From NCBI GenBank assembly GCA_037305845.1, contig CP147778.1, positions 1,632,001 to 1,696,000 on the forward strand: a stretch of 64,000 bases of DNA. Reading direction: 5' to 3'. This DNA comes from Candidatus Freyarchaeum deiterrae. Its GTDB lineage: Archaea; Asgardarchaeota; Jordiarchaeia; Jordiarchaeales; Jordiarchaeaceae. Below, one piece after another: positions 19,332 through 58,305 of this stretch. Numbering within the stretch: position 1 is the first letter of the stretch; each line of letters opens with the position of its first letter. Under the pieces are notes generated by a model. That model searched no databases. It had not been told where the DNA came from and was given only the letters and a program-made list of their open reading frames with translations. The translations under genes were made by a program, and so were the position numbers.

Positions 19332-19462
19332 GCCGAGGTAGCTCAGTTGGTAGAGCGTCAGGCTGTTAACTTGATGGTCAAGAGGTCTGTTTAAGATCTC
19401 TCCACAAGCAGGTCCGAGATGATATTGAAGCGTTTCATATCACGGATATCCTGTCCTCGGCG
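19332..19462 (+). tRNA. tRNA-Asn(GTT) with two non-canonical introns (48/49, 59/60)
   Basis: GCCGAGG/CCTCGGC acceptor, TCAGG-CT GTT AA-CTTGA anticodon arm; BHB introns 19380-19407 and 19419-19448. Confidence 0.9.
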
Positions 19463-27621: not shown

Positions 27622-30063
27622 TTAGTCCTCAATCAACTTCCAGAACTCCACATCATCCATAAAGCTCTTACCCACCCGTATACGCGAAGGCCCCGTAACA
27701 TTTTCCAATAATAACTTGCGTTCGATTTTGTCGACCATGCGACGCGAGAACAAAACTGTATCTGGATTTACACTAATGCTGTTAGCTCCTAATCGAACTA
27801 GAAACTCCAAATAATCAGGGTAAACACTGGGGGCCTGTCCACAGATAGAAGTAGTTACTCCGTATTTTTTACATATCTTAATAGTAAATGCTATTGCACG
27901 TAGAACTGCTAAATTACGCTCATCATATATCTCTTGAACACTAGCATCGTTTCTATCTACACCCAGAATTAACATTGTTAAATCGTTAGTACCAAAGCTA
28001 ACTCCATTGATTCCTTCTTGACAGAATTTGTCTATTAATAGTACACAGCTTGGAACCTCAACCATAATCCAGATTTGGAAGTCTGGGTCTACTCCCGGAT
28101 CTAGTCCTTCTTCTTTCATAATCTGTTTTACTTTCCTGAAAACGTCTACTGATTGCACAAAGGGTAGCATTACCCAGAGATTTCTCAGCCCGAATTCTTC
28201 TCTGACTTTTTTTATTGCTCTACATTCAAGTCGAAAAACATCGGGTTCTTTTATGTATCGGAATTGCCCTCTGTATCCTATCATAGGATTGGGGCCTACA
28301 TGCCCCGTTTCTTCCTCGTATTTCCTTCCACCTTCTAAAGCCAAGAATTCATCGGGTTTAAAGTCTAGAAATCTGTACACCACTGGACCTGGGCTGAAGG
28401 CATCGGCGACTTTTCTTACTCCGTCTGCAAATTGGTCTATCATTTCTTGTTCCCCGCCTTCTTCAATGAGTTTTCTTGGGTGTTTCCCTAATGTTATCAT
28501 CAAGTGCTCTGCTCTGAGTAGTCCAACACCATCCGCCTGTGTCTGTTTTGCAACTCTTTCTGCTATTTCAGGCATCGATAAGTTCACGTAGATTTTAGTA
28601 GCTGTAGATGCTGTCGTTGTGCCTACAGGCGCGGCTACGGTTTCTTCTTCCTTTTCGGCTTTTAGAATTCCTCGATATATCAGTCCTTTTCCACCATCAA
28701 CAGTTATTTGCCTCTCGCTTTGTAGAACATTGGTTGCCTTTTTTGTTCCTACTACACAGGGGATTCCGAGTTCTCGGGATACTATTGCCGCGTGGCATGT
28801 GTACCCTCCTTCGTCAGTTACTATCGCGGCTGCTTTTTTCATTACTGGAACCCAATCAGGTGTAGTCATTCTAGTCACTAAAATGTCTCCTTCCTTCAAT
28901 TCTCCTATGTGATTAATGTCTTTAATGACTCTCACCGGGCCAGCTCCTATTCCTGGGGATACGCCTAGTCCCTTAAGTATCATCTCTCGTTCCGTAGTAG
29001 TTTCTGGTTGGTTGGTTTTGGTATTTTTTTTTGCGGGTCCTGTGCTTGAACCATGTACTGTTTCCGGCCTAGATTGAAGTAAGTATATTTCTCCCTTTTG
29101 ATCTACTGCCCACTCGATGTCTTGAGCTGTTTTATAATGTTTTTCGATTTGTTTGCCATACTGGGCTATTCTCTTTATTTCTTCATCTGTTAAGGCTGGG
29201 ATATTTTGTCTTTCCGGAGGGATTTCTAAATGTTCAGTCTTTTCTGTACTAGGGTTTAATGCGTACTCGAGCTTTTTGGTTACAATGTGTTTTTCGACTA
29301 TTTCTAGATTAGATTTGTTCACTACATACGTGTCTGGTGTTACTGCCCCACTTACTACCGCTTCTCCCAGCCCCCAATTAGCTTCTATCATTATTTTTGT
29401 ATTATCCCCCGTTGCTGGGTGAAGTGTAAACATAACTCCCGCTGATTTTGGCTCAACCATAAGTTGAACAGCCACGCTAATGAGGACGTCTTGATGTCTG
29501 AATCCCTTTTCTTCTCTGTAAGTTATGGCTCTTTTTGTAAATAGGCTACTCCAACATTTTTCTACGGCTTCCAGCAACCCTTCTCTATTTTCGTTTAGAA
29601 AGGTCTCCTGCTGTCCTGCAAAAGAAGCGCCTGGCAATAGGGGAAGAATGGTTTAACCCATTACTTTATCCTCTGCGGAGGCGCTCGATCTGACCGCTAC
29701 TAATGGCTCTTTCTCTTTTACTCTCTTAGCTAGTTCGTCATAACTTTTCATTATTGCTTCTTGAATCTCTTCAGGGATTGGTGTAGATTCAATAAGTTGC
29801 CTGATTTTGTTTGATGCTTCTTCAAGTTGTTGGAAGTCTTTAGTGTCGGCTTTTTCAAGTATTTTGAATACTTTATTTTTTATATTTGTGTCTTCTAGGA
29901 ATTTCTTGTAGGCATAGGTAGTAATTGAAAAACCTGGTGGAACTGGGACTTTGGCTTTTGTTATTAGTTCACCCAAATTAGCGTTTTTTCCTCCTACCTT
30001 GGACACGTCTTCCTTTCCTACCTCTTCAAACCATAAGATTAAATCATTTTCATCGCGGCTCAT
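27622..30063 (-). CDS. ppsA: Phosphoenolpyruvate synthase, two exons (30063-29668 and 29637-27622), about 803 aa after splicing
   Basis: VGGKNANLGEL, AVRSSASAED|LPGASFAGQQET, EGGYTCHAAIVSRELG, FGTNDLT; 30-nt BHB insert separates D and L. Confidence 0.92.
29638..29667 (-). other. Putative BHB (tRNA-type) intron in ppsA mRNA
   Basis: AAAGTAATGGGTTAAACCATTCTTCCCCTA; in-frame TAA; folds GCA-GAGG-AT^A-AAGtAATGG/CCATTCTT-CCCC-TA^T-TGC. Confidence 0.85.
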
Positions 30064-57627: not shown

Positions 57628-57995
57628 GGTGGCGAGTCCTGAAGCTCGACATCCCGCACTACCAGCGTATCTGACACCTATTCTCCAATCCGGGATTCTG
57701 GAAGCACCGAGCGTTCAGAGTTAGGTTGCTCCATCAGGGCGCCGACCTAAATTATGCCAGCGTTCTCCCGGGCCTAACCGGTTTCCCTAATGAAGGATAA
57801 ACATACTTTCCCTACGAAAAGCTGTTACCCACCGTCGATCCTCCAGTGCGGATTTTCACTGCCTCGGAGACAGACCGTTTTGGCAGATTGGATATGCCTC
57901 ACATCAGCTTTCGGCCCGCCATATAGAGGATTTGCGGTCGAGAGGAGAACCTCTCTCAGGCAACCCCTATTTGCCCGCCTAGACAAGCCACCACC
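57628..57995 (-). ncRNA. ffs: Signal recognition particle (7S) RNA with an intron in helix 8
   Basis: End-pairing helix 1, Alu domain (ATAGGGG / CCTCTAT loop complementarity), long helix 5, helix 6 GCTTTTC-GTAG-GGAAAGT, helix 8 AGG-CCC-GGGA-G[intron]GG-AGCA; TTTATAT about 25 nt upstream. Confidence 0.9.
57733..57764 (-). other. Putative 32-nt BHB intron in SRP RNA
   Basis: CGGG-AG^A-aCGCTGGC/GTCGGCGc-CCTG-AT^G; removal restores CCC-GGGA-GGG. Confidence 0.85.
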
Positions 57996-58129: not shown

Positions 58130-58305
58130 TGGCGCAGAGAGCGGGGATTTCCTGACCAAAAAATTTTTTTGACCACTTCGAACCCGCGTTCCCCTCACGG
58201 GGAACTGGCTTAGCAGGCGTGCACCCGAAGAACAGTTGCTCCTCTAGTCAGCGCCGTACCGTTCCCATTCCACACAAAGCTAGGTGAAATCTTGGCTATC
58301 TCTGC
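58130..58305 (-). tRNA. tRNA-Ser(GCT) with three non-canonical introns (15/16, 29/30, 59/60), CCA encoded
   Basis: GCAGAGA/TCTCTGC+G+CCA; CTGGC-CT GCT AA-GCCAG; variable arm TTCCCC-GTGA-GGGGAA; introns 58262-58290, 58219-58248, 58147-58176. Confidence 0.9.

Follow-up and report, generated by a model that had tools for sequence, protein, structure and literature searches.

A probable bulge-helix-bulge intron at the helix 8 tip of the SRP RNA of Candidatus Freyarchaeum deiterrae, and inserts at the same bond in other archaea

Helix 8 of the universal SRP RNA belongs to the most conserved RNA elements known. Archaeal rRNA introns of the bulge-helix-bulge (BHB) type, which often encode homing endonucleases, and the BHB intron of the cbf5 pre-mRNA are non-tRNA substrates of the tRNA splicing endonuclease. 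The closest described system is that of Thermoproteus tenax, with a permuted SRP RNA gene whose transcript undergoes ligation at the helix 8 tip (Plagens et al. 2015, eLife, PMC4731332). The oligonucleotides of that study give the ligated junction as CCGGGAG joined to GGAGCA, and the open construct as one that begins with GGAGCA and ends with CCGGGAG (PMC4731332). The BHB substrate, with a CGGG/CCCG helix and AG^A and AA^G bulges, is cut in vitro by recombinant T. tenax EndA (PMC4731332); because it carried an engineered exon stem, cleavage is demonstrated for the motif and not for the precursor described here. Left open at the same bond, the T. tenax RNA is a poor binding partner of SRP19 and SRP54, and Plagens et al. 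proposed an ancestor with simple BHB introns, of which none was reported (PMC4731332). The complete 3.58 Mbp genome of Ca. Freyarchaeum deiterrae has been described, with introns in 92–95% of tRNA genes (PMC11291895); SRP RNA is unmentioned in the main text of that paper and of bioRxiv 10.64898/2026.10.13.758758. The original prediction for the present locus had stated that the permuted Thermoproteus SRP RNA is joined via a BHB, in agreement with PMC4731332, where the bond is the same as here. It had also stated that no internal SRP RNA intron is known, and our literature search, thin in its coverage of subscription papers, likewise found no published report of one.

The window analysed here is a stretch of 64,000 nucleotides of the Ca. 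Freyarchaeum deiterrae genome (contig CP147778.1, positions 1,632,001 to 1,696,000), and the coordinates below are counted from its first letter unless indicated otherwise. The SRP RNA gene matches the Rfam covariance model over model positions 1–317 with a bit score above the gathering threshold (Table 1). The precursor would be ~361 nt long, and ~329 nt without the insert. The Rfam alignment places a long insertion at the helix 8 loop, while the exons retain all helices. The helix 6 tip is intact, and its GUAG tetraloop, the usual SRP19 site and the partner of the helix 8 tip, is also the loop found in T. tenax. The GNRA loop of helix 8 and the helix 8b motif are complete only once positions 57733–57764 are removed. 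The insert had been predicted to interrupt helix 8 as the SRP54-binding site; the assignment to helix 8 holds, but the interrupted part is the tip, which contacts SRP19 and helix 6 and adjoins the SRP54-binding helix 8b loop. A permuted circular SRP RNA of the Thermoproteus type was rejected, given the normal order of the gene, the match over model positions 1–317 and the paired ends.

Table 1. Coordinates of the SRP RNA gene, of the parts of its candidate intron and of other BHB-like inserts
Feature	Position	Strand	Remarks
SRP (7S) RNA gene	57630-57990	minus	Rfam RF01857, 103.6 bits, E 2e-22; gathering score 96.5
5' exon end, helix 8 motif AGGCCCGGGAG	57765-57775	minus	invariant in alignment A1; provides one side of the BHB central helix (5' strand, 57770-57767) and bases 1 and 2 of bulge 1
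3' exon start GGAGCA	57727-57732	minus	3' strand of helix 8, leading into the SRP54-binding helix 8b loop
Helix 6 tip, GNAR tetraloop (GUAG)	57811-57816	minus	Rfam alignment; intact
Extra hairpin, SRP Alu domain	57940-57957	minus	between helices 3 and 4; also in the sister family
Candidate 32-nt BHB-type intron	57733-57764	minus	one base 3' of the helix 8 GGGA tetraloop
BHB central helix, CGGG with CCTG	57770-57767 (5' strand), 57738-57735 (3' strand)	minus
BHB bulges, 3 nt each	57766-57764 (AG^A), 57734-57732 (AT^G)	minus
Hairpin of the candidate intron, 7-bp stem and 9-nt loop	57740-57762	minus	minimum-energy stem, 57762-57756 paired with 57746-57740; pair probability 0.96-1.0
3' end of the candidate intron, CCTG and AT	57733-57738	minus	AT, first two bases of bulge 2
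tRNA-Ser(GCU)-like gene	58130-58305	minus	missed by ARAGORN and Rfam
Three BHB-like inserts in the tRNA-Ser(GCU)-like gene	~58262-58290, 58219-58248, 58147-58176	minus
30-nt BHB-like insert with in-frame stop, PEP synthase (ppsA) gene	29638-29667	minus
BHB-like insert of ~23 nt, GCAG-AAA...CTGT-AAA	G000:C1 ~1698725-1698755		beyond the window end
Weak Rfam tRNA match, 30 bits	19332-19406	plus	missed by ARAGORN

The extra hairpin in the Alu domain was considered as a second intron and rejected: it is without a conserved BHB and nearly invariant in the genus, and its excision at BHB-like cuts would disrupt helix 4. It is probably retained in the RNA. At loci L015 and L243, SRP54 is situated near the SRP RNA gene, at a distance of ~15 kb in this genome (C1:1704961) and of ~16 kb, on one contig, in genome G004.

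The host genome is metagenome-derived and carries a contamination rating of 5.6%, a circumstance in favour of regarding the interrupted gene as an assembly artefact or a pseudogene, the working SRP RNA being encoded elsewhere. The assembly nevertheless consists of one contig of 3,576,204 bases, in which a whole-genome search found a single SRP RNA gene, the joined, insert-less junction being absent from the DNA. An alternative intact SRP gene, which the original prediction had held against itself, was thus not found in the genome. As the exons keep all their helices and four independently assembled congeners carry differing inserts at the identical bond, the artefact or pseudogene reading is largely refuted, and we regard it as verging on the impossible.

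The sequence, coordinates and BHB parse that had been predicted for the insert (CGGG/CCTG central helix, AG^A and AT^G bulges, intron stem) all proved correct, on the minus strand. The BHB is relaxed here, with a 7-bp intron stem that follows an A-C mismatch at its first position (57763/57739) and an exon-side helix of one C-G pair leading into the non-canonical helix 8b loop; the motif is flush in 18 of the 19 distinct inserts described below. The insert boundaries cannot slide. Shuffled inserts gave an equally good BHB at the same cuts in 0.6–0.7% of trials. Scored by nhmmer against a profile derived from SRP RNAs that lack an insert, the gene rose from 132.9 to 154.3 bits upon removal of the insert, as the original prediction had anticipated, and the exact junction outscored ten shifted 32-nt deletions, with a margin of 2.6 bits over the nearest. 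The predicted cuts do regenerate the motif, the joined form being identical to helix 8 of uninterrupted relatives, and in many uninterrupted SRP genes it is the native DNA sequence. A self-splicing group I or group II intron, or a mobile one, was rejected on the grounds of the 32-nt length, the lack of any other Rfam match and the lack of a second genome copy. A donor copy of the intron was not found in the genome either, the best match being 21 nt long with an E value of 0.84. In every sequence-level test of the class the insert behaves as a BHB intron, and we put the probability that it is an archaeal BHB intron that is spliced out at about 0.9.

Helix 8 was examined in 50 Asgard SRP loci that had been found via Rfam alone. 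An insert is located at exactly the same bond in 14 of them, and the other loci have no insert there. The 14 comprise all five loci recovered from the family of this genome, all four from its sister family, three from Baldrarchaeia and two from another family; 13 have the full 4-bp BHB, a result reached by shuffles of each insert in 0.2–1.3% of trials. A pattern scan of a genome collection, using a pattern that contained part of the BHB and not the intron stem, added one locus each from Thermoprotei, Bathyarchaeia and an unassigned archaeon. All three were confirmed as SRP RNA, and their intron stems are perfectly paired. A bacterial glycine riboswitch among the pattern matches was discarded, a further Bathyarchaeia 'insert' (L323) was a pattern error, and the matches to a loose phylum-wide pattern were mostly noise. 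Motif-free searches found three further same-bond inserts among 28 Bathyarchaeia relatives, one of them with a different exon base, and none among the 24 Thermoprotei relatives having a match. Altogether, 20 SRP loci carry 19 distinct inserts of 17–39 nt, in Jordarchaeia, Baldrarchaeia, another Asgard family, Bathyarchaeia, one Thermoprotei and one unassigned archaeon. The survey of related SRP loci suggested with the original prediction yields same-bond inserts, with the BHB kept, in several lineages. The helix 8 tip would be a recurrent site because half of the motif, CGGG-AG, is already present in the exon.

The tetraloop is GGGA in 20 of the 20 intron-bearing loci and GGAA in none (four of these loci come from a pattern that required GGGA), and GGAA is common among uninterrupted relatives; a G in this position may help the central helix to form. 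BHB-like inserts are also present at other sites of SRP RNA (L029 in G033, L016/L019 in G031 and G021, L020 in G040 and L296 in G410). They include a 31-nt insert within the 5' strand of helix 8 (L029); two families carry one of 31 nt in the Alu-domain loop, and a Thermoprotei relative has two candidates of 26 nt around helix 8.

All 19 distinct inserts start with A and end with the central-helix strand followed by AN. The four central pairs are complete in 17 of them, with one mismatch in each of the other two; bulge 1 is always AGA, and bulge 2 is AAG, ATG, ACG or AAA. The first stem pair varies among G-C, U-A, C-G and A-U, and some relatives have two G-U pairs in the motif. In a set of related genomes, which are non-independent samples and whose kinship inflates shuffle and covariation tests, 55 of 57 cells of stem pairs 1–3 are paired, against 27 on exchanging the halves among loci (0 of 20000); 25 of 27 are paired against 12 with one locus per lineage, the covariation score is 0.52 (0.20 for shuffled inserts, at most 0.14 for slid registers), and 97.5% of the cells of alignment A1 are paired under the structure, with 20 two-sided changes (at most 56% in slid registers). 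Identity to this genome amounts to 36–68% for the intron cores and 64–87% for the exons, and the insert sequence is conserved nowhere beyond the splicing motif. As judged from these alignments, the pattern is that of a segment under selection solely for its removal. The intron reading is supported since inserts of unrelated sequence at the same bond keep the BHB via compensatory change in several lineages.

Covariation speaks for the BHB in the precursor; in energy folding the BHB is not the predicted minimum-energy structure. The probability of the central pairs is 0.21–0.24 in a 68-nt context and 0 in a 77-nt context, slipped pairings competing with them, and it is near 0 in several relatives; a hand-built BHB and a fold that retains the insert as a branch are only 1.5 kcal/mol apart. 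These predictions, as well as the stable hairpin into which the insert folds on its own, would suit a lineage-specific extension of helix 8 that is never removed and is tolerated by SRP19 and SRP54, and the Alu-domain hairpin of the same RNA, lacking a conserved BHB, indicates that retained extensions occur. A hairpin that stays in the RNA, however, needs neither a 4-nt strand complementary to the tetraloop nor an AN bulge, and both are found in 19 of the 19 inserts (two of them with a single mismatch), the remainder being variable. Moreover, the tetraloop would be lost from the predicted ensemble if the insert were kept, the probability of GGGA closure being ~0 with it and 0.94 after its removal. 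The Alu-domain hairpin is near-identical across the genus, whereas the helix 8 insert drifts. This genome encodes ordinary SRP19 and SRP54, and the RNA-binding motifs of both proteins look ordinary in the intron-bearing lineages, with no evident lineage-specific change. Retention of the insert is thus highly improbable.

The genome encodes two EndA paralogues, an alpha subunit with candidate catalytic Tyr, His and Lys and a beta subunit without them, as well as the RNA ligase RtcB. Two-subunit EndA is among the enzymes able to cut relaxed motifs, although not every one does so (PMC5829648). The tRNA-Ser(GCU)-like gene, 140 bases upstream of the SRP RNA gene, contains three BHB-like inserts, the central helices of which are weaker than that of the SRP insert. 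Removal of the ppsA insert fuses RSSASAED with LPGASFAGQ in frame. Because the tRNA-Ser and ppsA inserts carry BHB-like motifs, two of the tRNA-Ser ones with only three central pairs, EndA of this organism very probably copes with weaker motifs than the SRP BHB. The weak tRNA match at 19332–19406 is probably another intron-interrupted tRNA. A real intron might also be spliced only in part, leaving precursor alongside spliced RNA, with the amount of active SRP set by splicing. The relaxed motif (the A-C mismatch, two G-U pairs in some relatives, one central pair broken at two loci) and the competing folds would agree with such an arrangement, but the absence of conservation beyond the splicing motif gives no sign of a regulatory element, and the neighbouring tRNA introns, with their weaker motifs, must be removed to obtain an essential tRNA. 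We consider partial splicing very unlikely.

The spliced junction with the flanks of this genus gave no exact match in metagenome contigs, a collection that may be without RNA. Among the matches listed for a broader pattern (at least 80 loci), all are uninterrupted genes on contigs longer than 1 kb, mostly ~70–80% identical to the reference set over long alignments. They were rejected as spliced copies and ascribed to other archaea by their identity and long contigs. RNA is possibly absent from this collection because the matches of the broader scan are long, gene-flanked contigs.

On the SRP54 tree, which represents a single gene and has nine open branches, the distribution of the insert needs five changes, of which well-supported branches require at least three; one family with the insert groups with a family that lacks it (support 98/90). 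Either repeated gain or an ancient gain with repeated loss may fit this distribution. The intron-bearing genes interrupted at the same bond fit the intron-bearing ancestor proposed for Thermoproteus SRP RNA (PMC4731332), and the permuted Thermoproteus RNA may derive from such a gene.

In the proposed pathway, the SRP RNA precursor would fold into the BHB at the helix 8 tip, the (alpha-beta)2 tRNA splicing endonuclease would cut after the second base of each 3-nt bulge (57765/57764 and 57733/57732), and RtcB would ligate the two exons. Ligation would rebuild the CCC-GGGA-GGG hairpin, the tetraloop of which could then dock on helix 6 and SRP19, opening the SRP54 site. The sequence, the motif and its conservation, the single gene copy and the genes of the enzymes are observed; that cleavage and ligation take place, and that SRP assembly requires them, we infer. 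SRP function would then depend on splicing, an idea that is helped by the poor binding of SRP19 and SRP54 to the T. tenax RNA open at the same bond (PMC4731332). With a slight preference, we favour the wider picture in which introns recur at the helix 8 tip throughout Asgard and TACK archaea: protein targeting would be splicing-dependent, and these genes would represent the stage ancestral to the permuted circular SRP RNA of Thermoproteus and form part of a wider BHB splicing in the lineage that includes mRNA and RNase P RNA. Splicing of the insert, if it occurs, would make EndA and RtcB SRP-maturation enzymes in close relatives of eukaryotes. The bond match with Thermoproteus makes the 2015 hypothesis of permutation from a simple BHB intron testable on real genes. 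Such inserts also depress the annotation scores of SRP RNA (103.6 bits here, with a cut-off of 96.5), and interrupted SRP genes may escape annotation because of these lowered scores.

Compared with the permuted SRP RNAs of T. tenax and T. uzoniensis (PMC4731332), the present locus concerns the same RNA and the same joined bond, with nearly the same BHB (CGGG with CCCG or CCUG; AG^A and AW^G bulges); the T. tenax motif (CGGG/CCCG, AG^A, AA^G) is that of the Baldrarchaeia and Bathyarchaeia inserts. The proposed enzymes, heterotetrameric EndA and RtcB, are also the same, and both hosts are rich in tRNA introns. Unlike in Thermoproteus, gene order is normal and helix 1 is preserved, and where the Thermoproteus RNA is a circle cut from a leader and trailer, the BHB here would close an internal intron, so that the predicted product is a linear spliced RNA. 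The BHB introns of rRNA and cbf5 reside in other host RNAs, and the SRP insert, at 32 nt, is non-coding. The non-canonical BHB tRNA introns of Freyarchaeia/Jordarchaeia and Atabeyarchaeia (PMC11291895; bioRxiv 10.64898/2026.10.13.758758) occur in the same organisms, are of similar size and have the same motif. Repeated gains on the tree, which may apply to the SRP inserts as well, and a two-subunit EndA are further points of agreement, the difference being that the host here is the SRP RNA.
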